A stretch of 62,243 bases of DNA, counting the filler, from Stramenopiles sp. TOSAG23-6 (lineage: Eukaryota), in assembly GCA_900128565.1 (NCBI GenBank). It is 19 parts of 19 records of this genome, joined end to end, with 100 filler letters (N's around TTAATTAATTAA, not from the genome) between each part and the next. Parts side by side here need not be neighbours in the genome. Positions count along the whole stretch, not along the records: positions 3,302 to 6,499 come from LT637617.1; 18 more parts are not named here. One strand, written 5' to 3'. The translations under genes were made by a program, and so were the position numbers. Shown here one piece after another: positions 2,551 through 56,260 of this stretch. The first letter of the stretch is position 1, and each line of letters starts with the position of its first letter. The notes under the pieces were generated by a model. The model saw nothing but the letters and a program-made list of their open reading frames with translations. It did not search any database and was not told the DNA's origin.

Positions 2551-3353
2551 TATATTACAGTTGCAAAAAATATGTAGATAGTAAAACTATTGTATGTATT
2601 TCAAACACAGAAGATTGATAAAATACACAGTAAATATGACTTCGCTTGGCGCACCAACGACGCACAGAGTCTTCTTCACTACACGACTTGACTGAGTCTG
2701 ACCGCGATGGTCGCGATGGTCTTGACACGCGTACAAAAAAAACATCAAAAAATACACGAAATATCCAAAATTTTAAAATAACTATAAAATGAAAATGTAA
2801 AAAAGACTATAGAAATGAATAATAGAATAGAGATAGTAGCTATATAGATAGTACGTAGCGTATAAGTAGTAGTTAGGCTATGACATTGTTTCACTTCAAA
2901 ATGAATAGATAAACATCACAAATAAAAAGTTTTATTTATTTCATGAAACAAAAAGTAATACAGAATTTATTAAATCACAATTTTTCAATAGCATAATAAC
3001 TAACTAGATATGCCATACATCTATAGGTTAAATTGATGGTTTTGATTGTGAAAAAAGGTCGCGTAATTCAACTGTAGTATAATAAAATATTCAGTTCAAA
3101 AGATTAAAAAGATGAGTCACAAAAATTGAAAAAAAAATTGAAAAAAAAATTGAAAAAAAAATTGAAAAAAAAATTGTTAGGTACAAAATTTACTAATAAA
3201 ANNNNNNNNNNNNNNNNNNNNNNNNNNNNNNNNNNNNNNNNNNNNTTAATTAATTAANNNNNNNNNNNNNNNNNNNNNNNNNNNNNNNNNNNNNNNNNNN
3301 NACAAAATTTCGTACGAAAAAAAAAATCGAATTTGAAAAAACATAAAACATAC

Positions 3354-4319: not shown

Positions 4320-6397
4320 ATGGTAGTATCATNGGAGAATGTTGAATCAATTGTACATAATGTGGTTNATAATACACAAGTAGTTGACCTTCATACTCAT
4401 TTATTNCCATTTACTCACGANGATTTATTTGTGTATGGCATTGATGAGTTATTGACATATCACTATCTCATTGCTGAGTTCTTTGCAGTTGCGTCGAATG
4501 AAATTTCCACTGAAGTGTTTTTCTCTCTGACAAAACAGAAACAAGCAGATTTGATTTGGTACAAACTGTTTATCCAGCGTTCCCCAATATCCGAGGCTTG
4601 TCTGGGCGTTTTGACAGTTCTAAAAAAGTTAGGTTTAGATACTTTCATTGTAAATCGTGATCTTCAAGGTATTCGTTCATGGTATGCAAAATTTTCACCA
4701 GAAGAATTTGAATCTTTAGTATTTACAAAAGCTAAAGTACGATATGCAGTCATGACTAATATCCCATTTGACCCAGTCGAAGCAAAACATTGGATGAACA
4801 ACAAAAAAGTTTCAAGTTATTATGTACGTTTTATTTTATTTTATTTTTTTTTTGTTTTTCGTACGAAATTTTGTACCTAACGAATTTTCAATTTTTTTTT
4901 TGAAATATTTTTCCAAAATAAACAAGTCTGCTCTGCGCGTAGATGCTTTACTTTCAGCCAATGGATGGGACACTGTCTCAAAATCGCTTGTTGCTGCTGG
5001 TTTTCCAGCATCTATTGAAGGAGCACGAGAATATTTACGATCTTGGATTAAACGAATGAACGTTTTCATTTCGATTTTTTTTTGAAATTTTTTTTTTCGT
5101 ACGAAATTTTGTACCTAACAAATTTTTTTAGATTTTTTTGAAATTTTTTTTTTATAAAAATTTTGTACCTAACAATTTTTTTTTTTATAGAAAAATTTTG
5201 AAATATTTTTTCACAATAAATATCTCCTGTATATTTGATGGCTTCGACGCCATGTGGATTTGCAACTCCTCTTCCGTACCAAAATTCCGTACCTAAAAAC
5301 CCTAACCCTAACAGCAGTGAAGAATCTCCCTCACCTCAAACACTTCTTGTTGATGTTATTATATACGTTGCTCGTGAACAAAATTTGGCTGTAGCGATGA
5401 AAATTGGCGCTGATCGATGTGTAAATCCTTGTTTGCACACAGCTGGTGATGTATATTTTCATCATGAATTTCAAATTTATTTATTTTTTTTTTTTTTATA
5501 GAAAATTTCAAATTTTTTTTTTTTTTTCAAAATTTTAAATTTTTTTAAACAATTTTCTGTTGTTTCACATTTTGTCAATATTATAGGGTGTCGAAGTCGC
5601 TGATCTTTCAATCATCAAATATTTCTGTCAAAATTTTCCAGATGTGAAATTTTTAGTCACTGTTCTATCAAGAGTAAATCAGCATCAATTAGTCGTATAT
5701 TCTCGAAAATTTCCAAATTTACATATTTGTACAATTTCATTATTCATTTTTCTTTCTTAAGTACAAAATTTCGTATGAAAAAAAAAAAATTCTTCCGTAC
5801 TGGTACCCTAACCCTAGCCCTAATTGTTCAATATCATTTATTGTGTACAATGTAATATTCTCAATGTTTTTTTCTTTTTGCTTTACTGTTAACAATTTAA
5901 TTTTTTTTTTAAATTTTTTTATGATTTTATGTACAGTATTCAATTAGGGTTAGGGTTTTATTTTTATGTATATATGAAAATTATATACGAAATTTTGTAC
6001 CTAACAATTTTTTGTTTTTTTTTCAATATATTGTTGTACACTATATATGGTTGTTGGTGGTTTTGTAACAATCCTAGTATTATTGAAGAAATCTCTAAAA
6101 TGCGAATTGAAATGTTAGGTACTGCTTTTACTGCTCAACATGGATGTTTTATTTTTTTTTTAAATTTGAAATTGAAATTGAATTTTTTTTTTTTTTTTTT
6201 TCATAGTAAATTTTGTACCTAACAATTTTTTTCTTTTTTTGGTAAAAAAAATTTTGAAATATTTTTCCAAAATACATTCTGATTCTCGTGTATTAGATCA
6301 ATTATTATATAAATGGGATCATTCGAGAACAATCATTGCAAATGCTTTGAGTATATATTATAAAAAACTTGTAAACACTGGGTGGGCATTGACTACT
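4320..6397 (+). CDS. Uronate (glucuronate) isomerase-like amidohydrolase; exons 4320-4823, 4924-5057, 5222-5450, 5587-5728, 6047-6141, 6278-6397; 3' truncated
   Basis: DLHTHL metal-binding HxH motif, GIDELLTYHYLIAE, SPISEAC, VMTNIPFD, NLHIYGCWWFCNNPS and TAQH|SDSRVLDQLLYKWDHSR. All are rebuilt by removing family introns. Confidence 0.85.
5058..5221 (+). other. Non-canonical intron GA..AT with two copies of the internal motif
   Basis: AT|GAACGTTTT...CACAATAAAT|A joins WIKRI-SPVYLMAS in frame. Confidence 0.7.
6142..6277 (+). other. Non-canonical intron GG..AT (slides within a CAT direct repeat)
   Basis: CAT|GGATGTTTT...GTACCTAAC...CCAAAATACAT|TCT restores the conserved QHSD motif. Confidence 0.85.
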
Positions 6398-6599
6398 ATA
6401 TGTTTAATTTTATTTTTTTTTGTTTTCGAAAAAAAAAAATCGATTTTTTTTTTTTTGGTAAAAAAATTTTGTACCTAACAAATTTTCAAATTTTTTTTTN
6501 NNNNNNNNNNNNNNNNNNNNNNNNNNNNNNNNNNNNNNNNNNNTTAATTAATTAANNNNNNNNNNNNNNNNNNNNNNNNNNNNNNNNNNNNNNNNNNNN

Positions 6600-9500
6600 T
6601 TTCTTTCTCTTATTTATCCGAGTATTTGTAGTATCATCTAGAAGAGCATCTTCAAGATGATTACTTCTTTTATGCATTTTAGATACCTTATTTTTATTTT
6701 TATGAGATGTTTTCCCACCATGTTTTGTTGAGGTCGAGTTCCTATTATTCTTATTTCTATGGGATCCTTTTTTTCTTTTCTTCTTTCTACCAGATTTTGA
6801 ACGCTTCACCTCACGGCCGATTAAAGCTTCCATGTTATTAAGACGAAAATTGAAATGATTCAAAGATAATCTTCGTGTATTACATGTATTTTGAAAAACT
6901 ATGTTTGAAGTTTTTAATTCGTTAGGTATGAAATTTCGTACTAAAAAAACAAATAAAATTCCTGGTGATAACGTACATAATCCAGATGCGTCATCATCAG
7001 CACCACGACAGTCCAATAAAGCCTTACAAGAATTCGTTTTTGACATTTGATTTTTTTTTTTGGTACTCTTCGAGTCATTATTTATTGGCAGATTATCAAT
7101 TTTATTAGAATGTCCAGCAATTACAAATAAACCTTCAGCAGACGACATGTATTTTGGGAAAATATTTCAATTGTTTTTTGTGAGGTACAAAATTTACTAT
7201 AAAAAAAAATCGATTTTTTTGTTTAAAAAAAAAATAAAACATACATTGACATATTTCCTTTTTGTGGTGAACTTTGAGAGCTGAGTTCAAAATGCTGGCT
7301 AGATGTAGATGTCTCCGGAAAGTTTTGAATTCTGTCACATTCCATATCATCTCCCTTTTTGTTTGAAATCTCTGTAGAATCTGTGGCTAATTCACTGTAA
7401 TTTGTATCACTTTCAGCAATTTTCTTTTCGTTGTATCTTTTTTTTTCATCACTACTATATTTTGGAAAAATATTTCAAAACTTTCTTAAAAAAAAAAATT
7501 GTTAGGTACAATATTTTTATAAAAAAAAAAATCATACAAAAAAAAATAAAACATACATATGTTGGGCTGAAGAATTACAGTCTAAGTTTGCTCGTAAAGT
7601 AATAGGTACATCGACATCTAAGTAGTTGTATAACTTTGATAATGTTTTAGGTAATTTGTTTTTAAAAATAAAAAGAGGCCATCGAGATAAAACATGTATT
7701 TTGGAAAAATATTTCAAAAAAAATCGTTAGGTACAAAATTGCGTACGAAAAAAAACTCGAATTTAAAAAAAATTAAAACATACCTCAGCTAGACTCGGCA
7801 GTTGTGTAACACCAGAATCAAGAAGAAGAGAGATGCGACCAAATAATTGTCTTATTTCCTTACGCACACTACGAGACACAGGATCTTTTGGTAATGCAAG
7901 TTCAAAGCGTAAAAGAATCTGTATTGTATACTCAATAATAGCCTCGTATGATTTTAGAGTAATAAAATTATTTTCTGTAGTACAATCCGCATTCGATTCA
8001 GGGCATTCATTTTCATTGTGTACGACTACACTTGATTTTATATCAAATATTCCAATAGGTGGATACATTTTAGCTAACTGTAAACGAGATTTGATCAAAT
8101 TCAAACGAATCCAAGTAAATATTTTTTCTCTGGGGTTTTCTATAGACAATTGTTTATTTCGTGTAATAGTTTCGATTGCATCAGGAATAGCATGTAAGAT
8201 AAAATAAGAAGGATCACTCGTATACTTTGGAGTTCCTTCCAAAATAGAACTGTCCGAAAGCAATTCTCGAAATAATTTCGACCCATTGGAAATAATCAAA
8301 TTATACTTTTCTTGAAGATCCTCAAAAATCTCTTCGATACGATCAAATTTTCCTTCATTTTTGTTTTCATTATTTACATGGATCGTTGTATCATGATTTC
8401 CTTCATTTTTGTTTTCATTATTTACATGGATCGTTGCATCATGATTGGATATGTTGATACATTTTTCACAGTTTGTATTAGGGTTAGGGTTACTCAACAT
8501 TGTCGTCGGACATTCAGACAATGTTTCATTGTATTTATTTTGTATTTCAGAATTATCTAATAAATTTTGTAAATCTTCTTCAGATGGAAAATTAGATGAG
8601 AAACATTTGATGGAGGAAGTTTTTTGATTTCCGTCAAATTTCTCTACTTTTTTATCATTTTTATTCTCCATATACATTTTCTCTAATTCATTCTGCAATT
8701 GTTGGAAACGTTCAACTTCTACATTTGGTGTACTATTAATAATATCAATAGATCCAATGATTGCACTATTTCTAATTGATTTATCTGATATTTTCGTCTG
8801 TACATTAATAGGTGTTTTCATCACAAAATCGTTATCGGAGGTATTCCTATTTGTTGTCAGGGAAGTTTCGTTTTTTAATGTGATTGGCTCAAGAGAATCT
8901 GACAATGTATCAGGTGAATCAAGTGCACTTTGTAAGGCTGTTGGAAAATGACGCGGTATATGTATTATGAAAAATATTTATTTTAGTCAAAAAACATTAT
9001 TAAGTACGAAATTTTCTACCAAAAAAAAAGTTATACCTAAGAAAAAACATACATTTGAAAAATTGAAATAAACGATGAAATAAATGATGAAAACATACAT
9101 AATGATATGTACAAGGTTTGTTTCTTGACATTGTTTTATCTATAGTAATGTCGTGTGCCGAATGAGAAGATCGTAGCGCTAAATCGTCTATTAAGTGAGG
9201 ACAAAATTGAACATTTTTACATTGACTAAACACAACTGATAGTAAGTTTTGTGGGTTTTGAGGAGATATTTTTTTGATTTTCAAGTCATCTGAATGTAAA
9301 TGTGTAACGTTAGGGTTATTCGTTGTAGTTGGTTCAATTGTATCATCACGCGACGTATCTACACGGGACACATTTGAAAAAACTAATGGAATACAATCTT
9401 TTACAAAATTCGTCTTTTTTTTTGGTGTTTTTGTTTTCACTGGTATTTGAAATTCATTTTCTTTACAAATTGCCATTGGCGATACATTCAATGCACTAGA

Positions 9501-9795
9501 TGTAGATTGAACTTCTCTTATTATTCCAATAGTATTTGATAATGGGAATAATAGCAAAGTTGTTCCTTTTCTCATGAAAGAATTAAGCTTTTGTTTTTCA
9601 TGTTTTTCATTTGTTTTTTTGTTGTTAGGGTTAGGGTTAGGGTTTGAATCTTCCTTTGAAACGTCTAGAATAGCACAGAAACCAACATGAAGCAATCGAG
9701 TGAGTAATATAGAAAGATTGCCTTTATTAGTAAAATTACCTACAGTAGAAGAATACTTTAAATATTTTTTTTCCTTTTCATTCAAAGGAGATTCA
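6600..9795 (-). CDS. Treslin/TICRR (Sld3-Treslin domain)-like replication initiation protein, multi-exon, both ends truncated
   Basis: Spliced IQILLRFELA..KEIRQLFGRISLLLD..SLAE|VLSRWPLFIFKNKLPKTLSKLYNYLDVDVP resembles, from memory, the Treslin STD region (QVFLRLE...IPKTLGNLYNSL). Basic low-complexity tail. Several family introns, e.g. 7783-7694. Confidence 0.5.
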
Positions 9796-12173: not shown

Positions 12174-13025
12174 TCATTCACCACAGTAAATTGATAAATA
12201 CACTTCACCAAATCCATAGCAATGCAACATATTATGACTACTATATTTACGTAACGTTTGTTTCCTACGAATCATTTTTATTTGTGCAACAGCCTGTTCT
12301 TCCAACGATCCCATTCGAATCCAAACAAATTCTGGAATTTCTGGATTTTCATCATTGATATCAATGAGATCAACATTTGGTGAAATACCAGGTGTTTCTT
12401 CATTACACTTTTGAAAAGGTAAATTCAATTCATCTGAAATCAACTCTACTGTTACACCGTCTTGACGCAAACCTGTCAATTTTAATATAGAATTATACGG
12501 AATTGGACTGGATACATATATTGTGAAACAATATTTCAAAATTTTTTTACATGGTTAAGTACAGAATTTCATACGAAAAAAAAAAAAAAAAATTCCAACC
12601 CTAACCCTAATTCAAATTTTGAAAATGTACATGTAAACCATCTAATTGAATACGGCTAAATTTCCCTTTGCTAGTATTTGATATTTCTGGTTCTATACCT
12701 AATGATACAGAATATTTCATATTTATTAGATTATCAGTATTATCATATAAACCATCAGCATCACCAATAACTTCAACAAATGTATTGTGAAAATTAAAAA
12801 AAAAAAAAAAAAAAAGTGTTAGGTATGAAATTTACTATAAAAATTTTATACGAATTTTTTTTTTTTTTGGAAAATGAAAATGGAAACGTACATGCACTAA
12901 GAATAGGAGAATATAAAGTTGAGTCATTAGGGTTAGGGCTATCTTCATTGTTCACATTATTTGGTATTTCTTCTGCTGTATCACCAAACAGTTCAGCAAC
13001 TCCATCTGTTGCATATAACGTCGCA
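12174..13025 (-). CDS. Hypothetical multi-exon protein, 3' part
   Basis: Three coding-like blocks separated by family introns, with internal motifs near 12555, 12818 and 13059. Confidence 0.55.
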
Positions 13026-13189: not shown

Positions 13190-16100
13190 TTTCTTTCTCT
13201 TATTTATCCGAGTATTTGTAGTATCATCTAGAAGAGCATCTTCAAGATGATTACTTCTTTTATGCATTTTAGATACCTTATTTTTATTTTTATGAGATGT
13301 TTTCCCACCATGTTTTGTTGAGGTCGAGTTCCTATTATTCTTATTTCTATGGGATCCTTTTTTTCTTTTCTTCTTTCTACCAGATTTTGAACGCTTCACC
13401 TCACGGCCGATTAAAGCTTCCATGTTATTAAGACGAAAATTGAAATGATTCAAAGATAATCTTCGTGTATTACATGTATTTTGAAAAACTATGTTTGAAG
13501 TTTTTAATTCGTTAGGTATGAAATTTCGTACTAAAAAAACAAATAAAATTCCTGGTGATAACGTACATAATCCAGATGCGTCATCATCAGCACCACGACA
13601 GTCCAATAAAGCCTTACAAGAATTCGTTTTTGACATTTGATTTTTTTTTTTGGTACTCTTCGAGTCATTATTTATTGGCAGATTATCAATTTTATTAGAA
13701 TGTCCAGCAATTACAAATAAACCTTCAGCAGACGACATGTATTTTGGGAAAATATTTCAATTGTTTTTTGTGAGGTACAAAATTTACTATAAAAAAAAAT
13801 CGATTTTTTTGTTTAAAAAAAAAATAAAACATACATTGACATATTTCCTTTTTGTGGTGAACTTTGAGAGCTGAGTTCAAAATGCTGGCTAGATGTAGAT
13901 GTCTCCGGAAAGTTTTGAATTCTGTCACATTCCATATCATCTCCCTTTTTGTTTGAAATCTCTGTAGAATCTGTGGCTAATTCACTGTAATTTGTATCAC
14001 TTTCAGCAATTTTCTTTTCGTTGTATCTTTTTTTTTCATCACTACTATATTTTGGAAAAATATTTCAAAACTTTCTTAAAAAAAAAAATTGTTAGGTACA
14101 ATATTTTTATAAAAAAAAAAATCATACAAAAAAAAATAAAACATACATATGTTGGGCTGAAGAATTACAGTCTAAGTTTGCTCGTAAAGTAATAGGTACA
14201 TCGACATCTAAGTAGTTGTATAACTTTGATAATGTTTTAGGTAATTTGTTTTTAAAAATAAAAAGAGGCCATCGAGATAAAACATGTATTTTGGAAAAAT
14301 ATTTCAAAAAAAATCGTTAGGTACAAAATTGCGTACGAAAAAAAACTCGAATTTAAAAAAAATTAAAACATACCTCAGCTAGACTCGGCAGTTGTGTAAC
14401 ACCAGAATCAAGAAGAAGAGAGATGCGACCAAATAATTGTCTTATTTCCTTACGCACACTACGAGACACAGGATCTTTTGGTAATGCAAGTTCAAAGCGT
14501 AAAAGAATCTGTATTGTATACTCAATAATAGCCTCGTATGATTTTAGAGTAATAAAATTATTTTCTGTAGTACAATCCGCATTCGATTCAGGGCATTCAT
14601 TTTCATTGTGTACGACTACACTTGATTTTATATCAAATATTCCAATAGGTGGATACATTTTAGCTAACTGTAAACGAGATTTGATCAAATTCAAACGAAT
14701 CCAAGTAAATATTTTTTCTCTGGGGTTTTCTATAGACAATTGTTTATTTCGTGTAATAGTTTCGATTGCATCAGGAATAGCATGTAAGATAAAATAAGAA
14801 GGATCACTCGTATACTTTGGAGTTCCTTCCAAAATAGAACTGTCCGAAAGCAATTCTCGAAATAATTTCGACCCATTGGAAATAATCAAATTATACTTTT
14901 CTTGAAGATCCTCAAAAATCTCTTCGATACGATCAAATTTTCCTTCATTTTTGTTTTCATTATTTACATGGATCGTTGTATCATGATTTCCTTCATTTTT
15001 GTTTTCATTATTTACATGGATCGTTGCATCATGATTGGATATGTTGATACATTTTTCACAGTTTGTATTAGGGTTAGGGTTACTCAACATTGTCGTCGGA
15101 CATTCAGACAATGTTTCATTGTATTTATTTTGTATTTCAGAATTATCTAATAAATTTTGTAAATCTTCTTCAGATGGAAAATTAGATGAGAAACATTTGA
15201 TGGAGGAAGTTTTTTGATTTCCGTCAAATTTCTCTACTTTTTTATCATTTTTATTCTCCATATACATTTTCTCTAATTCATTCTGCAATTGTTGGAAACG
15301 TTCAACTTCTACATTTGGTGTACTATTAATAATATCAATAGATCCAATGATTGCACTATTTCTAATTGATTTATCTGATATTTTCGTCTGTACATTAATA
15401 GGTGTTTTCATCACAAAATCGTTATCGGAGGTATTCCTATTTGTTGTCAGGGAAGTTTCGTTTTTTAATGTGATTGGCTCAAGAGAATCTGACAATGTAT
15501 CAGGTGAATCAAGTGCACTTTGTAAGGCTGTTGGAAAATGACGCGGTATATGTATTATGAAAAATATTTATTTTAGTCAAAAAACATTATTAAGTACGAA
15601 ATTTTCTACCAAAAAAAAAGTTATACCTAAGAAAAAACATACATTTGAAAAATTGAAATAAACGATGAAATAAATGATGAAAACATACATAATGATATGT
15701 ACAAGGTTTGTTTCTTGACATTGTTTTATCTATAGTAATGTCGTGTGCCGAATGAGAAGATCGTAGCGCTAAATCGTCTATTAAGTGAGGACAAAATTGA
15801 ACATTTTTACATTGACTAAACACAACTGATAGTAAGTTTTGTGGGTTTTGAGGAGATATTTTTTTGATTTTCAAGTCATCTGAATGTAAATGTGTAACGT
15901 TAGGGTTATTCGTTGTAGTTGGTTCAATTGTATCATCACGCGACGTATCTACACGGGACACATTTGAAAAAACTAATGGAATACAATCTTTTACAAAATT
16001 CGTCTTTTTTTTTGGTGTTTTTGTTTTCACTGGTATTTGAAATTCATTTTCCTTCCAAATTGCCATTGGCGATACATTAAATGCACTAGATGTAGATTGA

Positions 16101-16379
16101 ACTTCTCTTATTATTCCAATGGTATTTGATAATGGGAATAATAGCAAAGTTGTTCCTATTCTCATGAAAGAATTAAACTTTTGTTTTTCATGTTTTTCAT
16201 TTGTTTTTTTGTTGTTAAGGTTAGGGTTTGAATCTTCCTTTGAAACGTCAAGAATAGCACAGAAACCAACATGAAGCAATCGAGTTAGTAATATAGAAAG
16301 ATTGCCTTTATTAGTAAAATTACTTACAGTAGAAGAATACTTTAAATATTTTTTTTCCTTTTCATTCAAAGGAGATTCA
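13190..16379. repeat. Second copy of contig 6600-9795 (Treslin-like gene), allelic or assembly variant
   Basis: Same ORFs offset by 6590. Visible differences cluster in the last ~350 bp: several substitutions and a 6-bp indel in a TTAGGG tract. Confidence 0.95.
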
Positions 16380-16589: not shown

Positions 16590-18460
16590 ATTGTAAACTT
16601 GAAGTTGCAACTGTATCTTTTGTACCAGATACTACAGTTAAAGGAGAAAACTGTATATTCCATAATAATGGCTTCCATTTTAAGGGACTCTGTGTTGTTT
16701 TAAAAAAAAAATTCAAAAATTTGTTAGGTATTTTTTTGAGTTTTTTGAGAAAAAAAAAATTTATCCAAAAAAAAAAAAAAAATATGTACAACATTTGAAA
16801 AAAAAAAACCTACAAAATATCCAATTTTACCACCCACAAAAAAAGACTTTATGAGTGAAACTATATTCGAATGTTTAAGCATTCCTACAGTCACCATATC
16901 AATAGTGCTTTTGTTGAAAATACTTAACACTAAAACTTTGAGGTCAAGTGCATTGATTGTTGCTTTTAGAACAACAGTTTTGTCCACAACGGTTGTAGAG
17001 CCTAAGTCTAAGAAAACGCCAAAATGTAATTCAATAGAAACATCTTTAAATTCTAATTGACTTTCAAAAGCTTCAGAACTTTTTGTATAGAACAAATCTG
17101 CCGTCAGAAAAGAATCTAAATTAAACACTTTAAGTTTCTTCACTGATATTATTAGATTACTCCTTTGATCATTTCGTTGTTGATCAACACCAAGCGTTAA
17201 CCTTTGTGTACCAGTCAAGAATTTAAAGAAATCAAATTTCTGAACAGTAGCACCTTGTTGAGCCGCTGGTTCTGGTTGAGCCGCTGGTTCTGGTTCATTC
17301 CTAATTAATAGTTGAGCCACTGGTTCTGGTTGAGCCGCTAGATCTGGAACCACATTTGCATTCCTAATTAATAGTTGAGGCGGATTCTCATTCTCCTCAT
17401 CTGCTGGCAAGATAGGAATGTCATTGTTAGGATCCAATTTTCCCGATGATTCAAAGACAAAACATGATTGAGCACTAGGGTTTGTAGATGAAGAGAAATC
17501 GTCACATTGCGTAAAGAGATTACGTATAATAGCGCTGATTTTGAGTTGCTCAGATTTTCCAATGGTCTCACCTAACACATCAGATATGTCTGTCGCAGTA
17601 GACTTGAGCCACTGTATTTCAATATTATACGGATCAACTGCATCGAACTGATTCTTAGCGATTAAATCGTCTTTAAAAGCAGTGACATTGTCCTCCAGTA
17701 GTGTTATATCTGGTTCTTCTGACAAACCAAAGTCAGCTTCACGACTATTCGTGTAACTTCCAAAAAATTGATCTACAGATTGCAACAATTTCTTCCCTCG
17801 TGTCATACCAAGTGGCACAAGAGTGTTGCATATAATTGAACTTAGAGGAAGAGTGTTTTGGAGAGCTCTACTGACAAGACTGAGGTCTTTTATTGAGACA
17901 TTCTTCACATGACAATGCTTCACGTTTCCTACGTCGTTTGGTAAAGACAGTTGCTCTTTAGACACCAATGATAAAGTTAAATCTACCGAAACGTTATCTA
18001 TCCCCCAAGTTGTATACGATTCCAAGATGGTTCTGGGCGCTGTTCCGCGCTCTTTAAACAACTCCAGAGTGAATGCCCCAGTGATCTTGATACTGAGGTC
18101 TCGTTCTGCCCTTCCATCAGAAATGAGCAGTCGGGAAGGGTCAATATCTAGTTGTGATAGCTTCAGATCCCTAATATGTAGTTTCTTGATATCTTTTAAT
18201 CCTGTCCAAGACATTGCAGAATCAACTGCAGAATTAACACGAGAACCAAACCACCCCCTTTCACTACTCGCGGTGGAGTCGGTGGAGTCGGTGGGGTCGG
18301 TGGAGTGTAAAGAAATAAGCGGGAACTTTACAGTGTTCAATACTTTGTTGAGATCTCCAAAAGGTTCCGAGACAACGCATTGAAGAATATAAAGGACCGA
18401 CAGTAACACAACTACATATCGTTGATGAGCAAAAGTACGCACGCGTCGGTGGAAATACAT
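16590..18460 (-). CDS. Hypothetical signal-peptide or membrane-anchored protein, 3' truncated
   Basis: Long ORF with a hydrophobic segment VVVLLSVLYILQCVVS, beta-rich segments and internal AAQPEP repeats. Ends in family introns. Confidence 0.7.
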
Positions 18461-19769: not shown

Positions 19770-19814
<45 letters not shown>

Positions 19815-19831
19815 TTTTTTTGGGAAAAAAA

Positions 19832-19875
<44 letters not shown>

Positions 19876-22800
19876 ATACATTGTAAACTTGAAGTTGCAA
19901 CTGTATCTTTTGTACCAGATACTACAGTTAAAGGAGAAAACTGTATATTCCATAATAATGGCTTCCATTTTAAGGGACTCTGTGTTGTTTTAAAAAAAAA
20001 ATTCAAAAATTTGTTAGGTATTTTTTTGAGTTTTTTGAGAAAAAAAAAATTTATCCAAAAAAAAAAAAAAAATATGTACAACATTTGAAAAAAAAAAACC
20101 TACAAAATATCCAATTTTACCACCCACAAAAAAAGACTTTATGAGTGAAACTATATTCGAATGTTTAAGCATTCCTACAGTCACCATATCAATAGTGCTT
20201 TTGTTGAAAATACTTAACACTAAAACTTTGAGGTCAAGTGCATTGATTGTTGCTTTTAGAACAACAGTTTTGTCCACAACGGTTGTAGAGCCTAAGTCTA
20301 AGAAAACGCCAAAATGTAATTCAATAGAAACATCTTTAAATTCTAATTGACTTTCAAAAGCTTCAGAACTTTTTGTATAGAACAAATCTGCCGTCAGAAA
20401 AGAATCTAAATTAAACACTTTAAGTTTCTTCACTGATATTATTAGATTACTCCTTTGATCATTTCGTTGTTGATCAACACCAAGCGTTAACCTTTGTGTA
20501 CCAGTCAAGAATTTAAAGAAATCAAATTTCTGAACAGTAGCACCTTGTTGAGCCGCTGGTTCTGGTTGAGCCGCTGGTTCTGGTTCATTCCTAATTAATA
20601 GTTGAGCCACTGGTTCTGGTTGAGCCGCTAGATCTGGAACCACATTTGCATTCCTAATTAATAGTTGAGGCGGATTCTCATTCTCCTCATCTGCTGGCAA
20701 GATAGGAATGTCATTGTTAGGATCCAATTTTCCCGATGATTCAAAGACAAAACATGATTGAGCACTAGGGTTTGTAGATGAAGAGAAATCGTCACATTGC
20801 GTAAAGAGATTACGTATAATAGCGCTGATTTTGAGTTGCTCAGATTTTCCAATGGTCTCACCTAACACATCAGATATGTCTGTCGCAGTAGACTTGAGCC
20901 ACTGTATTTCAATATTATACGGATCAACTGCATCGAACTGATTCTTAGCGATTAAATCGTCTTTAAAAGCAGTGACATTGTCCTCCAGTAGTGTTATATC
21001 TGGTTCTTCTGACAAACCAAAGTCAGCTTCACGACTATTCGTGTAACTTCCAAAAAATTGATCTACAGATTGCAACAATTTCTTCCCTCGTGTCATACCA
21101 AGTGGCACAAGAGTGTTGCATATAATTGAACTTAGAGGAAGAGTGTTTTGGAGAGCTCTACTGACAAGACTGAGGTCTTTTATTGAGACATTCTTCACAT
21201 GACAATGCTTCACGTTTCCTACGTCGTTTGGTAAAGACAGTTGCTCTTTAGACACCAATGATAAAGTTAAATCTACCGAAACGTTATCTATCCCCCAAGT
21301 TGTATACGATTCCAAGATGGTTCTGGGCGCTGTTCCGCGCTCTTTAAACAACTCCAGAGTGAATGCCCCAGTGATCTTGATACTGAGGTCTCGTTCTGCC
21401 CTTCCATCAGAAATGAGCAGTCGGGAAGGGTCAATATCTAGTTGTGATAGCTTCAGATCCCTAATATGTAGTTTCTTGATATCTTTTAATCCTGTCCAAG
21501 ACATTGCAGAATCAACTGCAGAATTAACACGAGAACCAAACCACCCCCTTTCACTACTCGCGGTGGAGTCGGTGGAGTCGGTGGGGTCGGTGGAGTGTAA
21601 AGAAATAAGCGGGAACTTTACAGTGTTCAATACTTTGTTGAGATCTCCAAAAGGTTCCGAGACAACGCATTGAAGAATATAAAGGACCGACAGTAACACA
21701 ACTACATATCGTTGATGAGCAAAAGTACGCACGCGTCGGTGGAAATACATCGTTTTTGAGGGACGAGAATTCCAAGCTTTGTTGCTTTTGTTTCTTTCTT
21801 GTTTCTTTTGTGTTTTTGTTACAGTTTTACACCAGTACCATAGACAAAACCAGGAAATATAGTCAGTCATTTTTGCTGAGATCATTTTATTATTTTAAGT
21901 ACGAAATTTCGTATATATACGAATTTGTGATCAACGATCAAATTCGTTTTGACAGGAACTAAAAAATGGGTACCGGGTAACATTTTGTACGTGGGAAACC
22001 GGGTATCCGAAGAAGATATCCGTTAAAAATCAAAAACGAATCTTTTACTCTTCTGTATAAGGTGGGAAAGCTATACCCTTTATTCCAGAGATATTCATCT
22101 ATTTGACATTTGCTTTCGTTTAAAAGTTATCAAATACATTACAAAGCAGCTGAGCTGTAGTACTACCTTTATTTCAATCGTTCAATGGAGGAAAAATACC
22201 GAGAAGAAGCTGATAAAGACTTTTCAGATCTTCAACTTAGTAAGGAGAGAAACTTACTTGAAAGGGCAAAAGCGCAAGAAAAAGAAATAAAGCGTGCGCT
22301 TGAAAGAGAAGTAGCTAAACTAGAACAGGATCGAGAAAAGAAATATTATGAAGATAAATTCAATAATTTGTCGACCCCCAACGTGAGTCCCACACACTCG
22401 ATGGAACAATTGACGGCAAGGGACGCAAAAGAACAAGAACGACAAAATCAAATTCTGTTTCAATTGCAGAGAGAAACAGATATGTCCGACAAAGGAATAT
22501 GGAACAAAGAACCAATTCTACTGGAGTTACAGAAAGAAAGACAAAAAAATATGGACCTTTTAGAGGAACAAAGACGACTCTTAAAAGAGAGAGACAAAGA
22601 ATCGCAGCTTCTATTAGAACTGAAGAGGGAGAGAAATGCCAATGTGTCCCTTTTAGAAAAAGAAAAACAATCATTATTGGAAAGACAAAAAAAGGTGATT
22701 CGTGAACAATCATTATTGGAAAGACAAAAAAAGTTGACTCGTGAAAGAGAATTAGGGATTATCAGTCAAGCAAATTATGATGAACGGGAAGCAAACCTTT

Positions 22801-22959
22801 TATCAGATTTGAAAACAGAAAGAGCGAAAAATACAGCCTTTGAAAATGCTTTATTGCAGAAAGACCGAGAGATTGCGAGGAGAGCAAAAGATCAAGAACG
22901 GGAAGCAAAACTTGATTTGAAGAGAGAGAGGGACAAAAATGTAGCTTTTTTAAAAGAAG
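19770..22959. repeat. Duplicate of contig 16480-19669
   Basis: Identical ORF set offset by 3290 and identical ends. Confidence 0.97.
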
Positions 22960-27868: not shown

Positions 27869-28247
27869 TACCACTTTTACAATATGTATTGTGAATTTTT
27901 TTTTTTTGTTAAAAATAATCGTTAGGTACAAAATTTCGTACGAAAAAAAAACCAAAAGCAAAAAAAGACACCACGGCTTAAGAGATACTACAAGATAATT
28001 AACAATTAGTTCAAATTTGAGTGACTCACTTCAATTTCTTGAAAAAAAGTTTTGAAAGATTGTAACATTAAATTTACCTAATGATATATATTTGGTGTTT
28101 TGTGTCATAATATATCATCAATGATACTTGACAATTAGATTACACTTTTATGACTTTATTTTTTCTATTTATTATTAAATTTAAGCAAGTCACATACTAT
28201 CAAAAATGGATTGGATGGAAAGATAAAACATTGATTTTCATAGTTTT

Positions 28248-29709: not shown

Positions 29710-30835
29710 ATTTCAAAGTCTTTTGATTGAATATAATGAGATTGAAATATAGGATAATAATTCAGCATACTTTTTACTGCGGCATTGAAAGATAAGCAAC
29801 ATGCTTCATGGCAATTCGATATCTCTTGTGAAAAATCACGAAATAATAATGAAAGTATACCAACTCCAGTTTTAGCTAGTAAACAAAGTTCATGATTACC
29901 CTGGCCTATTGGTAGTTCAACAATTTTCTCCAAAATTTTCAAAACAGTAGGGATAAAATTCTTCACAATTTCGATATATATTGAACCATTCGTGGTTGAA
30001 CGCATGTCTTGTGAAAAATATTTCAAAAACAAATCTAAAAAAAATTGTTAGGTACAAAATTTCGTATAAAAAACGTTAGGTACAAAATTTCGTATGAAAA
30101 ACGTATATATCCTGTAGATGTTCAAGACATCTTTTGACTAAAGTGAGAGCTCGGACATGTGTTAGATGACTAAAGACTTTTGTGCCCTCCTCCAGAACCC
30201 ACAGAGACTGAGATACGTATTGTGAAAAATATTTTCAATTCGAAATTCGTTAGGTATGGATTTTCGTACGATAAAAAGTACATTCGAAATTCAATTTTGA
30301 AAACGCACATGAATCGCGGGAAAAGTTCAGCTACAAGAGTATCAGGCACGTCTGAAACCAAAATGCACATACATGAAAGAGCACCTTCTGCTTGACTAGA
30401 ATTTAAATTGTCAGCTTTTTGAATAAGCCCAAATAGACCATCCATGAGCTCGGGCCATTCTTCAGGCCAGTCATTCGAGGCAATCAAGGCAATGCAAACT
30501 GCTGATGCAGTTCTGATTTTGCCACTGGTGTCACTCAAGCCACATGGAATACGCACACGAATGTACGCCTTCTCATCTGCGAGGATAACACGTTCACAAG
30601 CTGTAATTGGTTTCCATCTAGCTTCACAAAGCTGCCTCAGAATGACGCCAGATAATTGCCTCAGTGCAAGGCGAATGCCATTTGTAACTAAGATATCGAC
30701 GAGAGTTCTGGCAAAACCATCAATATTTTTAAAAGATTCTATTGCTTGCTCTGCAGACTGTCGCGTTGTAAGGTCAGGGGATAGAGTTCCTTCTAACACC
30801 CGAAGGGCTTGCATTTGTTGTCCCTCTGTCACCAT
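29710..30835 (-). CDS. IPO9: Importin-9-like karyopherin, 5' part
   Basis: IBN_N-like RQSAEQAI..LRQLSGVILRQLCEARW and IRTASAVCIALIASNDWPEEWPEL. Introns 30308-30215 (GT..GT) and 30106-30004 (AT..AT) keep the frame open. Confidence 0.8.
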
Positions 30836-32990: not shown

Positions 32991-33625
32991 ACACTGATTT
33001 GTTCAGTTCTTGTACAAGTCTACTTAATATTTTTTACTTATTTGCATTTCTATCATCCAGAAAAATTTGCAAATCGTACAACATGGATCCTTCTTTTTTT
33101 TGTAGATTTTTTCTTTTTTGGTTACAGTATATATTGTGCTTTTGCTTTATCCAGCAGAGAATTTGGTATGTTAATGTTCAACTTTTTTTCAATTTCAAAT
33201 TTATTTTTCGTACGAAATTTTGTACCTAACAAAAAAATGAAAAAATATTTTTTCACAATATAGGTACTTGGATCATAGAATCAGATAATGGACAAAGTGT
33301 AGATTCTCAGAAAGAAAAGTATACTGCAGCAAGTGTTCTTATTTGGGGTGCTACTATTACAGCGCTTCATATATTATTACATACCATTGCTATGCTTGGT
33401 TGGTGTATGCCCAATGGAATCAATAATTTAAATTTGTCAAATGGAGAAGAAAAAAATACGAAAAAAAATGAAAAAACTGAGAACAAACACGGGAAAAAGA
33501 AACATGCAAATAAGTCTGATGCGCAAGAAGTTGGACAAAGTGATACATCAAACAAAACAAGTTCAAAAACTTCAGGAGGTAGGTCTGGGAAATCTAAAGA
33601 TTCTTATTTTAGTCAACAAGCATGA
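32991..33625 (+). CDS. Multi-pass membrane protein, 3' part
   Basis: Three hydrophobic segments. Family-type intron 33166-33263 has canonical GT..AG ends and joins REFG-TWIIES. Confidence 0.6.
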
Positions 33626-39490: not shown

Positions 39491-41750
39491 ACTGTCATTT
39501 TTTTCTTTACAAGTGGATTATGCATTGATGTATTCAACAAAATTGATGTATTGTGAAAAAATATTTTTTTTTTAGCAAAAAAAATCGTTAGGTATGCAAT
39601 TTCATACGAAAATAAAATGTATGTAAAAAAATCAATTTTAAAAACGTACATGTCTCAGACACAGTTTCACAGAAAGAAACACAAGGATCTGCAACTTTAA
39701 TTTCTACTTCTGAAAATAGACATCGAAGATCATACATGATTGAATCTGCATGAAGTTCACCAGTACTATATATTACGTGTTCTCCAGATTCCTCAACTTT
39801 TGTATGAGCTAATGGGTAACTTTTATTAACATTTCGAAGACCTTCAAGCATTTTTGGTAACTCCGATGGACGCAACGGTTCCACTGCAATTTTAACAACC
39901 GAAATTGTATCAAATACCAGAGGTTTGAAAATGGCAAGAGCTTCGCTTTCACCTGAGGGTACATCTCCAGATGTAGATGAATATGTATTAGCATCAAGAG
40001 AACATACTGTTGCTGTTTTCATGATACTAGCATCAATTCCTTCGAGCATGACTAAATTACCAGCAATGGCTCGAGAAATATTAACTCTATATCGTCCTTG
40101 CATAACAGCAACAGATGTTACTCGACAGGTAACGCAATCTTCTTCATCGTATTCTGAATAACCTTCGCCAAGGACAGATACATTTTGTGCTGGGCTTAAA
40201 GTCCCCGAAAATAAACGCCCAAAAGCTCCAAATGTTTTACCATCCGGGGAAGGAAACATTTTTACTACATTAAACATTACAGGAGCATCAGATTTACATT
40301 GTTTCATAGCAAGGGAAAGAGCTGAGTCTTGTGATCCAGAATATACTCGAGAGACTTTAGTAGGAGCTCCAGTTTTAGGAGTTGGCAAATGATTTGTAAC
40401 CATGCTTACAATTCCTTCGACACGGTGTTTTTGACCAAAAAAACGTGACATGACAATCTTAATTAATGGAGCAGGATCCATTCGTAGTTCTGTTTTTTTT
40501 ACTTTTATATGCAATTCTGATAATGTTTTAGCAAGCTCATCCTCATGTTCACCTAATACTTGCGAATACACCTTATACAGTGGTTCTAATATAAACTCCA
40601 CAAAAGTTCGTTTCATGCTGCTATTCGCCCGAGTTTTAGAAAATTGTCGAGTTTCTGCATCGAAAAATATGTCACCCCAAAGCCTTCGTGCAAAAGCTGT
40701 GGCATCAACATTTCCATGCCATCGACTATAATGTTCCGCAAATGATAATAAAGTGAAACTCCATCCATCAGTACTTGAAGTGAACGCGACATTTCCTAAT
40801 TCAGGTGAAACTCTCGCCGTGGACGAATTAGTACTATTACCCAAAGAAAATGTTGCGAGTATATTATTGACTTCTTGAATGACGTGACATATTTTATGAA
40901 AGGCATCAGTCGGTGGTAATCTTAACTCAGTAATGAGACGATCCATTTTAGACAAAACTAAAGTAATCGGTATTCCTGCTTGACACACATGTTTTAAAAG
41001 TCTCTCTGTTTGCAGCATCACACCTTCAACGACATCTACTACAACAATACAACCATCCGCAGCTCGTAATGACGCTGTTACTTCACCAGAAAAATTTGGA
41101 TGCCCAGGTGTGTCAATAACGTTGAGTAAGAAGTGCTTGCCTCTGATGTCAGGCAGGACTACAGTTATAGGGCAAGCTTTTAAACTTATACCGCGTTCCT
41201 GTTCATCTTTACGAGTATCTGTATAGCGCCTTTGACCATGTAATGGCCACGATTCTTTGTGGGTTTGTTCAATAAGTAAATCCAAAAGACTAGTTTTCCC
41301 GTGGTGTAAGTGACCAACAACAGCAATATTACGAATGAGTGAAGTTGTTTCCATCAAAGTCGTCATGAACTCAAGTGAATAATTAAGCTCTGGAACTTCT
41401 TTCTCCAAAACTGAAAATACTTTGGCTTTGACAGGTTTGATTATTGGCTCTGTAATTGGTTGCGTATCCTCGTCTTCAACACGAGTCTCGGCGTCTGGAT
41501 ATACTTCACTTGCATCTGGATAGTATTGTTTGTCTTCTTGAAGCACGATCTGCTGCCCAGCAGCGGCAGCATTGGTTGCTGCTGCTGCAGAAACATCACC
41601 TAACAGTGCCAATTCATCCCCCTCTGCATCACCACCAGATTCTGGTCCAGATTCGGAATCAGAGCTTTCAGAATCGAACGCTTCTGAGTCAGACCCCGAA
41701 AGTTCAGGGCCAATGTAATTCCCAAACTCGTCATAAAGTTCTTCGTCCAT
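39491..41750 (-). CDS. EFTUD2: U5 snRNP 116 kDa GTPase (Snu114), 3' truncated
   Basis: MDEELYDEFGNYIGPEL, IVLQEDKQYYP, GHLHHGKT, DTPGHPNF, AVEPLRPSELPKMLEGLR, KVEESGEH. First family intron at 39649-39546. Confidence 0.97.
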
Positions 41751-42101
41751 ATCGATAGAGACACTAGATTAGCACTTTAATAAATTAATACAAGCCTTTC
41801 TTATATTCCAATCTTTCTTCAACAATTTCTCACAACTAAACGTAACTCAATGGGTTGTACACTGAATAGGGTTCTTCGATAAGGAGCGGACTACCTTTTT
41901 TGTTACGTACTATTGCGGGTCTTGCATGGAGAACGTGCTCTCGACGACCTCGACTCTCTCTCGCGAGTTCATTCAATTCCAATTTTTTTTTTTTACCTAG
42001 GCTAGACGGGCAGTTTTGTTCCTTGGAATGAATTGAAATAATTTCAAAGGTTCAAAAAAAAAATTGAAAAAATTTAGACAGCCCTGGCTAAACGCTACAC
42101 A

Positions 42102-42767: not shown

Positions 42768-44312
42768 TTTTTTTTTTTTTTTTTCAAAGGAATTTTTTTC
42801 CCTAACTTTTTTTTTTTTTTTTTACTAACCAAAAAAAAAAAAAATTAATATTTTTCCAAATTACATCCAGTTTTATTATCTACACTGACTAATGAAGAAA
42901 AAGCTTATATAGATTTGACAATAACTAAAAAAACTAAAAAAACTAAAAAAAACAAAAATTCTACATCTGATGATAGCCCTAACCCTAACAAAAAATCTAC
43001 AAATTCCAAAAATTCCAAAAAACGAAAATCTAAAGATTTATCTAAAGAAATATCAACAGAATCGATTATACCCAACCCTAACCCTAATTCACCAAAAAAG
43101 AAGAAAAAAAAATCACCAAAAAAAAAACACGAAAAATTAACAAAATTGTTTCAAGCAGTACAAAATATTATGCACAATTGTCAAAAACATGAAAAAATAT
43201 TTTTTTCCTTTTACTCAAAACAATTAAAACCATTTGTATCTCAGCATGTGTTATCAAAATTACCAAAATTAACTGACCTTGAAAGAAGTTTTATTTGTAT
43301 GTAGTCAAACATTCAAAACATTTCAAAAAATAATTTCATACGAAATTTTTGTACCTAACCAAAAAAACCAAAAAAATTTAAATTTTTTTTTTTTTCATAC
43401 GAAATTTTGTACCTAACATTTAAAAAAAAATATATAATTAAAGCAGCACAGATGATAACTTATTTGATCCCGGGACACCATCATCTGTTGTTCAACCAAT
43501 CGGGATTGGAAATGTATCTAAAAAGCTAACTCTTTATACTCATCAATTAAAAGGGTTTGAATGGTTATTGTACATGTTTGATAGAGGTATGCATCCAATT
43601 CTTGCGGATGAGATGGGTCTAGGGAAAACCATCCAAACAATTACATGCATGTTTTATTTTTTTCAAATTTTTTATCTACATTTTTTTTTTTTTTGGTAAA
43701 AAAATTTTGTACCTAACAGAAAAAATCAAAAAAAATATTTTTTCACAATTACATTTATTGCTTCATTAAAATTAGATAGAAAGTTACCAGGTACTTTTCT
43801 AATAATAGTTCCACTCAGCGTTATTTCGAATTGGATGATCGAAATCCAACGATGGTGTCCCACATTACGTGCAGTTCGACTTCATGTACGTTTTTGTATT
43901 TCAATTTTTTTTTTTTAAATTTAAAAAAAAAAAAAAAAAAAAAATTTTCAAATAATTTTTTTTTCCCAAAAAAAAAATGTACCTAACAAAATTTAATTCT
44001 TTTTTTTTTTTTTTTTTTCACACAATAAATACCTATGAAAAAACAGAGAGGGACCGCATTCGTGATAGTATCATTCAAGATATGAATGAATTAGATATTG
44101 TTGTTACAACGTATGAAACTGTGAAAGGAAAAGATATGATATCTAGTCTTATTCATCAAACAACTTGGCTTGGTGTTGTGTTGGATGAGGCACATCGCAT
44201 AAAAAATGAAAAAAGTAAAACATCAGTGGTTTTGTCACACATCAAAGCATGTATAAAGATATTATTAACTGGAACTCCATTACAAAATAACATGTATGTT
44301 TTACATTATACC

Positions 44313-44344
<32 letters not shown>

Positions 44345-44362
44345 TTTAAAAAATTTTTTAAA

Positions 44363-44394
<32 letters not shown>

Positions 44395-49204: not shown

Positions 49205-49808
49205 NNNNNNNNNNNNNNNNNNNNNNNNNNNNNNNNNNNNNNNNNNNNTTAATTAATTAANNNNNNNNNNNNNNNNNNNNNNNNNNNNNNNNNNNNNNNN
49301 NNNNATGCAGCGAACGAGAATCGAAACAACCACCTTTGATTCTTGATGTTTTTTGATGGGGCATCAAAGTCTTATTTGTTTTAACACGAAATTTTGATGT
49401 GACTTTATTTGTTTCAGCCTTGGTATGCGTTGAGGGTACCGTAGTACGTGGACGTGGACGTCGTGGTCCTGTCTGTTCGTGTTGATGTTGACACATCATC
49501 TCTCACGAGTGGTACCTTATCCGAGTACGAGTCAATAAAAAAAAAAATTTCGATTTGGATTTCTTCATTTCGTGTTTTATAAAATTAAATTTTAGCAAAA
49601 TTAAATTTATCTCAAAAATCAAATGTTTCAAAAAATCCCAAAATCATCAATAGTAGGTCCTGGTTACAACGCCGGCCTTGAAAAGAGAACTGATACTGAT
49701 CAACAGCATCGCTCTCTTGAAGTGTATTCCCATTAAATATAAACGACTCGTGATCAGAAACTCGATAAGCAAAGAATCATAAAACATAATTCCAATATAT
49801 AGTGGGAA

Positions 49809-55887: not shown

Positions 55888-56260
55888 GCCATCCAAAGAG
55901 ACTATAGGAGAATACGATTCCATGCCATGTGACCCTGTCCACAACCAAGAACGTTCTGAATGGGTCTTGCGGTGGTTACGCATAGCAGAGCTCATTGAAA
56001 AAGAGTCAAAACATGCAAAGCTTGTGTATGTAACATTACCATTTCCTCGGTCATGGATGAAACCTTCAAATTGGTTAGGATTCGTAGATATGTATGTTAG
56101 GGTTATCACGATTTTTTTTTTTTTTTTTTGTAGTAAATTTTGTACCTAACAAAAATAATTTTTAAATATTTTTTTACAATATATGTTATCCAAGAATATC
56201 AAGGGATCGGTTGTTTTTGTAAGAGGAAATGGTCGGGATTGTACGATTAATGTTGTATAA
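55888..56260 (+). CDS. SLC12 cation-chloride cotransporter C-terminus
   Basis: LIEKESKHAKLVYVTLPFP..FVDM|LSKNIKGSVVFVRGNG. GT..AT intron at 56092-56184. Confidence 0.75.

Follow-up and report, generated by a model that had tools for sequence, protein, structure and literature searches.

The introns of a 62,243-nucleotide stretch of DNA from Stramenopiles sp. TOSAG23-6 (GenBank assembly GCA_900128565.1; the whole stretch is called the window below) repeatedly contain one long internal motif, of which the copy at positions 4,855 to 4,920 is an example, and this raises the question of what the motif is. An earlier note on this DNA left two answers side by side: an extended branch element read by a variant U2 small nuclear RNA (snRNA) or by a novel factor, or the core of an introner transposon. 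Whole-intron similarity, linked subfamilies, broken contigs and abundance point to the second, as may the short inverted ends and the AT borders. The motif is probably the core of a short, high-copy repeat that forms introns, an introner with features of a miniature inverted-repeat transposable element (MITE), whose copies would be removed as introns that begin with GT and end with AT. These non-AG 3' ends are the most unusual feature of the family, and they are supported by reading frames and protein profiles.

The window joins 19 contigs of about 3.2 kb, sorted by descending size, through linkers of the form N44-TTAATTAATTAA-N44 that carry stops in all six frames (at 3202-3301 and then every ~3.29 kb).

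A repeat that covers the whole intron

The intron around the example contains the elements that recur throughout the window.

4824-4923, plus strand: intron with the core motif, 100 nt, GTACGT...CCAAAATAAAC; the bounds given by the repeat profile keep the reading frame (134 open codons upstream, 53 downstream)
4856-4881, plus strand: exact copy of the 26-nt core motif, TTTTCGTACGAAATTTTGTACCTAAC
4874-4881, plus strand: TACCTAAC, the likely branch site, with a CTAAC core, 43 nt from the intron end
4903-4923, plus strand: 3' block, the palindrome AAATATTT followed by the family terminus TTCCAAAATAAAC, as placed by the family alignment

Across both strands of the window, the 26-nt core motif has 34 matches with at most three mismatches, against 0.00 expected from 100 shuffles. 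Three of these lie in duplicate contigs, which leaves 31 unique matches, and the count rises to 43 with up to four mismatches. The octamer TACCTAAC alone has 55 exact matches where 0.84 are expected. The several dozen copies described in the earlier note are thus borne out, and so are two further observations made there. The copies lie sense to the host gene (36 sense copies in catalogued introns against one antisense), and they sit some tens of nucleotides before the end of the intron, with the A of TACCTAAC 29-56 nt from the end in 31 of 34 motif-bearing introns; the other three distances are 88, 112 and 206 nt.

The core motif is the central part of a repeat some 100 nt long, which covers the entire intron. 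Its blocks follow in the order GTAYGTTTT; a T-rich part, often with CAATTTCGAATTT; the 26-nt motif; a (G/A)ATTTTTT spacer; often GAAATATTTTT; and C-CA(A/C)AATACAT. Seventeen full copies align from the first base to the last, and the similarity reaches the exon borders without entering the exons. The host genes are unrelated to one another, with kinesin, SNF2, EFTUD2 and importin-beta among them.

A profile built from these 17 copies finds 86 matches at E<1 in the 62 kb, and 59 matches at E<=0.01 in unique contigs. The latter comprise 36 sense copies in catalogued introns, one antisense copy, 14 copies cut by contig ends and eight others; truncation at contig ends is expected of a repeat that breaks short-read assemblies. 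Our catalogue holds 37 unique introns that split open reading frames, 4,350 nt in total, with a median length of 103 nt (range 80-249) and all three phases in use (15/9/13). All kinesin introns that could be traced belong to the family, in regular or degenerate form, and by sequence the family appears to supply nearly every intron detectable in the window.

Two subfamilies can be distinguished. Copies with A at base 10 of the 5' end mostly carry CCAAAA at the 3' end, in the form CCAAAATACAT, while those with C or T at base 10 mostly carry CA[CT]AATACAT. The variable positions form no compensating pairs in the terminal helix, so this linkage (9/2 versus 3/21, Fisher p=1.4e-4) suggests that the subfamilies were copied from distinct source elements. 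The core is duplicated in tandem at 5058-5221, 30004-30106, 43297-43443 and from 52060 onward, and several family sequences lie outside the coding introns.

5756-5788, minus strand: 33-nt core fragment between two plus-strand genes and opposite to both, adjoining TTAGGG-like repeats
16690-16789, minus strand: degenerate member upstream of a likely start codon, probably an intron of the 5' untranslated region (UTR), with TACCTAAC kept and the end ACAG
27884-27968, minus strand: family copy between two convergent reading frames (3' UTR or intergenic), with core and 3' end intact and without the family 5' end

In an alignment of the 37 copies, conservation is uneven. The AAATTTTGTACCTAAC half of the core is near-invariant, and the half with the CGTACG palindrome is variable (CATACG, a frequent variant, TATAGT and others). 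The best-kept columns are AAATTTTGTACCTAAC and TTTTC-CA-AATACAT, followed by GTAYGTTTT at the 5' end. The earlier note had taken the motif with its perfect palindrome for one conserved block and the blocks for selected sequence; both statements suit the branch-like half, and the second also both ends of the intron, but the palindromic half decays. Its description of the spacers as poorly conserved homopolymers applies between the motif and the acceptor, but not between the 5' end and the motif, where recognisable family blocks persist. The second palindrome, said there to abut the acceptor, lies about a dozen nucleotides before the 3' boundary in the family alignment. It is exact (AAAATATTTT) in only 6 of 37 introns, its 8-mer AAATATTT is found in 20 of 37, and in the intron at 4824-4923 the corresponding sequence is GAAATATTTTT.

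Such a pattern, with the branch half and the termini kept and the palindrome decayed, fits older family members in which only the parts required for removal survive: the 5' splice site, the 3' terminus and, between them, the branch region and its T run. Within the core motif, the TACCTAAC half probably serves as the branch site. Its CTAAC core agrees with the usual branch consensus, so a variant U2 would not seem to be required. The window itself contains no Rfam match to an snRNA. A sense copy of TACCTAAC with at most one mismatch is missing from three of the 37 introns (8960-9098, 50693-50772 and 51317-51456), all of which keep the reading frame.

The same pattern bears on a reading without any mobile element. 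Here the blocks would be long, rigid splicing signals, an extended branch recognised by an altered U2 or a new factor and a 3' motif recognised by an altered U2AF, in introns that converged on them or retained them. That TACCTAAC and both termini are the best-conserved parts while the palindromic half decays would suit such signals, as would the survival of TACCTAAC in the degenerate 5'-UTR intron and an architecture common to nearly all introns here. However, the similarity extends to the CAATTTCGAATTT and GAAATATTTTT blocks, which have no obvious role as signals, and the 5' and 3' variants are linked over ~90 nt without compensating base pairs. Rigid signals also sit poorly with copies that break the assembly, with a core fragment and a copy outside coding introns, with one antisense core and with the three introns that lack a sense TACCTAAC. 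In addition, the exon ends in AT before 30 of the 37 introns, and we know of no requirement of U1 pairing for AT at that place. We regard this reading as very unlikely.

Intron boundaries

Of the 37 introns, 28 have the terminal dinucleotides GT-AT and three have GT-AG, with single cases of GT-AC, GT-GT, GA-AT, GG-AT, GC-AT and AT-AT. In all, 32 introns end in AT and 33 start with GT, and the copies stop at ...ACAT, ...ATAT or ...AAAT directly at the exon. The ordinary acceptors that the earlier note had assumed are therefore a small minority. The introns on which the following arguments draw, in addition to the one at 4824-4923, are these.

5058-5221, plus strand: family intron with a duplicated core, first bases GA, ending in AT; frame kept (86/92 open codons)
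6142-6277, plus strand: family intron GGATGT...ACAT (GG-AT), from the catalogue
7694-7783, minus strand: family intron GT-AT, upstream exon ending in GAG and thus without an upstream AT (398/53 open codons)
30215-30308, minus strand: intron of an importin-beta-like gene, ending in ACGT (last two bases GT), with an in-frame AG 9 nt downstream as an alternative
33166-33263, plus strand: family intron ending in AG (ATAG), one of the three GT-AG copies, from the catalogue
39546-39649, minus strand: intron of EFTUD2/Snu114, GT-AT, read through by the public gene model
43647-43754, plus strand: intron of an SNF2-type ATPase gene, GCATGT...TACAT (GC-AT), between SNF2 profile positions 1-36 and 40-84
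43886-44030, plus strand: intron of the SNF2-type gene, GT-AT (AAAT end), from the catalogue and the SNF2 profile
50442-50540, plus strand: kinesin intron 1, GT-AT, between Kinesin profile positions 1-196 and 198-251
50693-50772, plus strand: kinesin intron 2, GT-AT, 80 nt, with the TACCTAAC half deleted, from frame and profile
50810-50905, plus strand: kinesin intron 3, GT-AT (TATAT end), upstream exon ending in GTT, from profile and catalogue
51029-51120, plus strand: kinesin intron 4, GT-AT, upstream exon ending in TGC, between profile positions 266-303 and 304-327
51317-51456, plus strand: kinesin intron 5, GT-AT, with sense ends and an antisense core (51324-51377, minus strand), from profile matches
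51531-51658, plus strand: kinesin intron 6, GTTTGT...ACAT, with the degenerate core TATCTAAC, from the catalogue

The boundaries were checked against reading frames in 18 end-to-end copies, whose ends were taken from the repeat profile alone, with no frame information. The criterion was that the longest open frame upstream continue as the longest open frame downstream. The frame is kept in 16 of the 17 testable copies, and the eighteenth runs into Ns. In the one exception the profile had taken an inner GTATGT, and the true donor, 46 nt upstream, keeps the frame. When the acceptor is shifted by +1 or +2 nt, the frame is consistent in only 1/18 and 0/18 copies, respectively. Between the branch-like motif and the 3' end, 24 of 34 introns contain no AG at all.

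Protein profiles lead to the same boundaries. The Pfam Kinesin profile runs across successive exons as positions 1-196, 198-251, a 12-residue exon, 266-303 and 304-327, and the SNF2 profile as 1-36, 40-84 and 101-168, with one split codon and two residues between its first two segments. In total, profile positions continue without a gap over six introns, and the EFTUD2 junction aligns to its homologues with no residue missing. Kinesin intron 4 (51029-51120) is the cleanest GT-AT case: its upstream exon ends in TGC, no AG occurs beyond the branch-like motif, and the junction joins profile position 303 directly to 304. The public EFTUD2 protein (P0083) equals the exon of the window (39546-41768, minus strand) save for two kinds of exception: four internal gaps where the gene finder placed introns inside an open exon, and 20 C-terminal residues that are a read-through of the GT-AT intron at 39546-39649. 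The read-through shows that these introns went unrecognised in that annotation.

The dinucleotides themselves can change while the cut position stays. In five copies with changed dinucleotides (GA, GG, GC, AC and GT) the frame is kept at the family-equivalent cuts, and the same holds where the 5' end, at 30106, is AT. For the two changed 3' ends, at 4923 (AC) and 30215 (GT), an in-frame AG lies 3 or 9 nt downstream and offers an alternative acceptor; in the intron at 4824-4923 it is at 4925-4926. Since the frame survives these changes, the cut sites may be set by position in a terminal structure or by flanking motifs and not by the dinucleotides.

A shift of the register by 2 nt lets about half of the copies read AT...AC, as in AT-AC introns of the U12 type, and the branch-like octamer loosely resembles the U12 branch sequence. 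U12 introns have [AG]TATCCTT at the 5' end and the branch sequence TCCTTAAC 10-20 nt from the 3' end. The 5' consensus here is GTATGTTTT and the branch-like motif lies 29-56 nt from the end, and we rejected a U12-type reading on these grounds.

Borders, inverted ends and mode of spread

The AT at both borders is near-invariant. The upstream exon ends in YAT in 25 of 37 cases (CAT 15, TAT 10), and the last three bases of the intron are CAT in 23, TAT in 5 and AAT in 4. The downstream exon starts with G, T, A and T in 19, 19, 17 and 22 of 37 cases, against shares of 17/33/33.5/33% expected from base composition (for G, 17% of the non-intron sequence). Upstream exons tend to end in (A)(T)(A/T)YAT, so that the insertion context approximates the palindrome ATAC-AT-GTAT, which mirrors the ends of the element. 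The borders are most simply read as a 2-bp AT target-site duplication (TSD) at a palindromic target: the AT on either side (YAT before G) would be the duplication, and the element itself would end in GTAT...ATAC. A longer duplication of 4-6 bp (CATG or ATGTAT) was considered and rejected, given that the second exon starts with GT in only ~11/37 cases, counted by eye.

We propose that each copy carries its own signals for removal, namely a GTAYGT 5' site, TACCTAAC as branch site together with the T run, and the terminus CA(A/C)AATACAT. Exact removal of a segment that starts with the G of GTAYGT and stops with the T of ...ACAT would produce a non-canonical GT-AT intron, restore the frame and leave one of the flanking AT copies behind. 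The short inverted repeats (AT)GTAT...ATAC(AT) would close the intron in a helix of 6-7 bp, in which the exon AT and the GTAT pair with the intron-terminal ATACAT, often joined by a pair between C(-3) and the first G of the exon. A terminal helix is present in the minimum free energy (MFE) fold of 20 of 34 copies.

The variable dinucleotides and the paired ends would also suit an excision that is not spliceosomal. The RNA might be cut at the foot of the terminal helix in a structure-guided way, as has been suggested for nonconventional introns of euglenids, or the element might be excised from the DNA. Cuts at a fixed position relative to the repeat stay in frame through GA, GG, GC and AT at the 5' end and AC, GT and AG at the 3' end; ends and flanks together form the palindrome (C)ATGTAT/ATACAT(G), the one that pairs in the 20 folds; and direct repeats lie at both borders. 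Against such an excision, the 5' site is strong and yeast-like, a CTAAC motif and a T run follow at distances normal for the spliceosome, and the stability of the helix is marginal. Bulk DNA contigs retain the elements, with no exact intron-skipping joint among those listed, and the borders are not the TA...TA of ciliate eliminated sequences. We consider this explanation improbable. Internal eliminated sequences of the ciliate type, with TA borders and bulk DNA that lacks the element, were rejected as a model in their own right, given that the borders here read AT before G and AT at the end and that seawater DNA contains the introns. The yeast-like 5' site, branch motif and T run, together with the retention of the introns in bulk DNA, lead us to favour spliceosomal removal at the RNA level, with acceptance of a 3' AT.

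The family would have spread by transposition of DNA. A related possibility keeps the same family and replaces this step with reverse splicing into transcripts, followed by reverse transcription and recombination. The sense to antisense ratio of 36:1 within coding introns would be expected from that route, although selection against antisense copies that cannot be spliced yields an equal bias. Exon flanks that resemble the intron ends (YAT, and a lean towards G-T-A-T) would fit an insertion guided by pairing, but the target consensus is roughly palindromic, as it is with transposases. Moreover, reverse splicing makes no duplication, yet AT is found on both sides, and the intergenic fragment lies in the opposite orientation. 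Spread through reverse splicing thus seems unlikely, and transposition of DNA remains the route that we prefer.

Independent DNA supports a mobile, multi-copy family. Contigs from two seawater DNA runs were aligned (4,292 from run X3 and 1,702 from the second run), and their summed depth reaches ~44,700 and ~17,200 on intron bins and ~7 and ~4 on exons, a rough measure that is not a copy number and to which other organisms may contribute. The family is very abundant in seawater DNA. Independent DNA contigs also run from exon into intron (X3 record 3; X4 records 11 and 13). Among the joints listed (with 225 further joints beside them), none skips exactly one intron, as an intron-free allele would. 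A 24-mer of the motif has no match in metagenome contigs of the Joint Genome Institute (JGI); a 19-mer has three there, all in unrelated contexts and judged to be chance. Viral contigs contain no match to the motif.

The intron family is abundant in two metatranscriptome runs as well, with a summed depth of ~4,400-8,500 from 623 and 699 contigs. In the kinesin gene this depth falls in the bins 50439-50519, 50682-50762, 51006-51086 and 51330-51410, with the exons uncovered. Its origin may lie in carry-over of DNA, in unspliced RNA or in excised introns that are stable. The small share of the words of the window that is found in the metatranscriptomes is due to the intron repeat itself.

Several points weigh against a GT-AT introner. 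Nineteen of the 37 donors in the catalogue were placed with help from the reading frame, so that the unbiased test is that of the 17 profile-defined copies. Five introns contain an in-frame internal AG; splicing there would turn part of the element into coding sequence. After exons that end in AT, the register can also be read as AT...AC or AT...AT, and the GT start is fixed only by the seven introns without an upstream AT, such as that at 7694-7783, where the GT...AT register is forced (+/-1 nt). The AT repeat cannot be separated from the shared consensus, and matches within an intron are no commoner than matches between introns, a comparison without power because both AT borders are near-invariant. 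The inverted repeats (AT)GTAT...ATAC(AT) span only 6-7 bp and are imperfect beyond, and the copies fold hardly better than their shuffles (mean z -0.67). At the RNA level, the kinesin exons (49305-51711) are uncovered in the metatranscriptome contigs X8 and X9, the one metatranscriptome piece to span a border, X8 record 18, is unspliced, and among transcript-derived fragments over the EFTUD2 junction the best match has 59% identity and none is near-identical. Finally, the genes of the window include no transposase and no autonomous copy of the element.

Host, related systems and significance

The genes of the window are eukaryotic and include those for a kinesin, EFTUD2/Snu114, an SNF2 ATPase, importin-beta, a Rab protein, ankyrin and a sperm-flagellar CH-domain protein. 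At 612 of 613 aligned residues the EFTUD2 exon agrees with a protein in EukProt that bears the label 'GSMAST32...', and its next relatives, with oomycetes and other stramenopiles among them, have at most 59% identity. Sequence of the window is also represented in seawater metagenomes. On the strength of this match, these relatives and the seawater metagenomes, the host is an uncultured marine stramenopile with the label MAST-3. The larvacean tunicate Fritillaria, which the 3' AT and the YAY triplets had brought up as a possible source, was rejected in view of the 'GSMAST32' label and these relatives.

The G+C content of the window is 31%. Contigs 3 and 5 share 99.5% identity, contig 7 duplicates contig 6 exactly, and contig 14 is a perfect inverted palindrome that looks like an amplification chimera.

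13190-16379, 19770-22959 and 42768-45939: duplicate, near-duplicate or palindromic contigs

The introns are identical in contigs 3 and 5, so this pair allows no comparison of rates between motif and spacer. The two contigs differ by exactly one TTAGGG unit, at 9624-9629. The telomere-like sequence (TTAGGG)2 has 22 matches in the window with at most one mismatch, against 0.08 expected. Several lie in reading frames, where they are in frame as CCCTAACCCTAA; others occupy the stretch from 5' site to core within introns (12516-12630 and 56092-56184) or adjoin the intergenic core fragment at 5756-5788.

706, 5300, 5806-5823, 5944, 8478, 9625-9642, 12599, 12927, 42977, 43076, 53268, 58659-58676 and 61695-61712: (TTAGGG)2 sites

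Micromonas, a pelagophyte stramenopile, dinoflagellates and fungi are known to have introners with terminal inverted repeats (TIRs) and TSDs (PMC11282704). In Micromonas, Aureococcus, dinoflagellates and fungi, as here, similarity between introns of unrelated genes reaches the exon border (PMC11282704, PMC9860276, PMC12130899). The family has in common with these introners splice signals carried by the element and a host among aquatic protists, and its short inverted ends and AT borders may correspond to their inverted ends and flanking duplications. It differs from them in that the dominant 3' end is AT and in that both splice sites lie inside the element save for the 2-nt AT. One large introner survey accepts only AG and AC as 3' sites (PMC12130899), and curation of this kind would probably have discarded a family like the present one. 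MAST or stramenopiles are not named in the main text of two large surveys (PMC9860276, PMC12130899), on which their supplementary species tables may bear. A literature search for 'introner' with MAST-3, MAST-4, Nanomonadea or Incisomonas returned no paper. In the passages searched in MAST genome papers (PMC5778133, PMC8163842, PMC12614181), intron structure and splice sites are not discussed, and the word 'intron' occurs only in two methods sentences of PMC5778133.

A close likeness is found in Fritillaria, a larvacean tunicate, which has non-canonical introns derived from MITEs, with AT as the commonest 3' end (44% in F. pellucida and 34% in F. borealis) and a YAY triplet at each border, one directly ahead of the 5' site and the other closing the intron (PMC13326754). 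Here, too, non-AG ends predominate (32 of 37 in AT, from frames and profiles), YAT ends the exon in 25 of 37 cases and the intron in 28 of 37, and a uridine-rich tract is kept in both systems. Most introns of F. borealis do not start with GT (AG/AC, AG/AT), but 33 of 37 do so here. Fritillaria is an animal with diverse introns and with a duplicated U2AF (PMC13326754), and the present host is a stramenopile with one dominant family.

Other systems share parts of this picture. In Amoebophrya, a genus of parasitic dinoflagellates, more than 60% of introns are non-canonical and multi-copy, with TSDs of 3-5 nt and TIRs (PMC11282704). Amoebophrya belongs to another lineage and its intron borders are variable, in contrast to the one dominant GT-AT class found here; its U1 snRNA is reported absent, whereas the 5' site of the present family is still U1/U6-like. 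Euglenid nonconventional introns have non-canonical borders, ends that pair and join the exons, and TSD-like repeats at the junctions (PMC11282704), to which the non-canonical borders, the ends that pair in 20 of 34 folds and the border repeats described above are similar. A euglenid-type reading was nevertheless rejected: a polypyrimidine tract and a spliceosomal 5' site are missing from the euglenid introns, which leave the transcript as circles, and the present ones have GTAYGT, CTAAC and T runs. The family thus joins the themes of introners and of non-canonical introns, and it is set apart by its eukaryotic supergroup, by the retention of GT at the 5' end and by the dominance of one family.

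A broader proposition is that a single mobile family made or replaced nearly all introns of this genome, that the spliceosome routinely uses a 3' AT and tolerates GA, GG and GC at the 5' end, that the cuts are set by the terminal palindrome and not by the dinucleotides, that the symmetry of the ends allows a copy to persist with an inverted core, and that this is a protist case convergent with Fritillaria. We find this conceivable and lean slightly towards doubting it as a whole.

If RNA confirms the GT-AT boundaries, this would be, as far as the searched literature shows, the first protist in which the bulk of the introns derives from a single non-AG introner family. It would then be a second and independent system, besides Fritillaria, in which to study how spliceosomes come to accept a 3' AT, and one in which to ask whether invasion by a transposon drives change of the 3' site. 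Surveys restricted to AG and AC would miss families like the present one, and the protein sets of lineages with such introns are likely to be systematically wrong, as the EFTUD2 model exemplifies.

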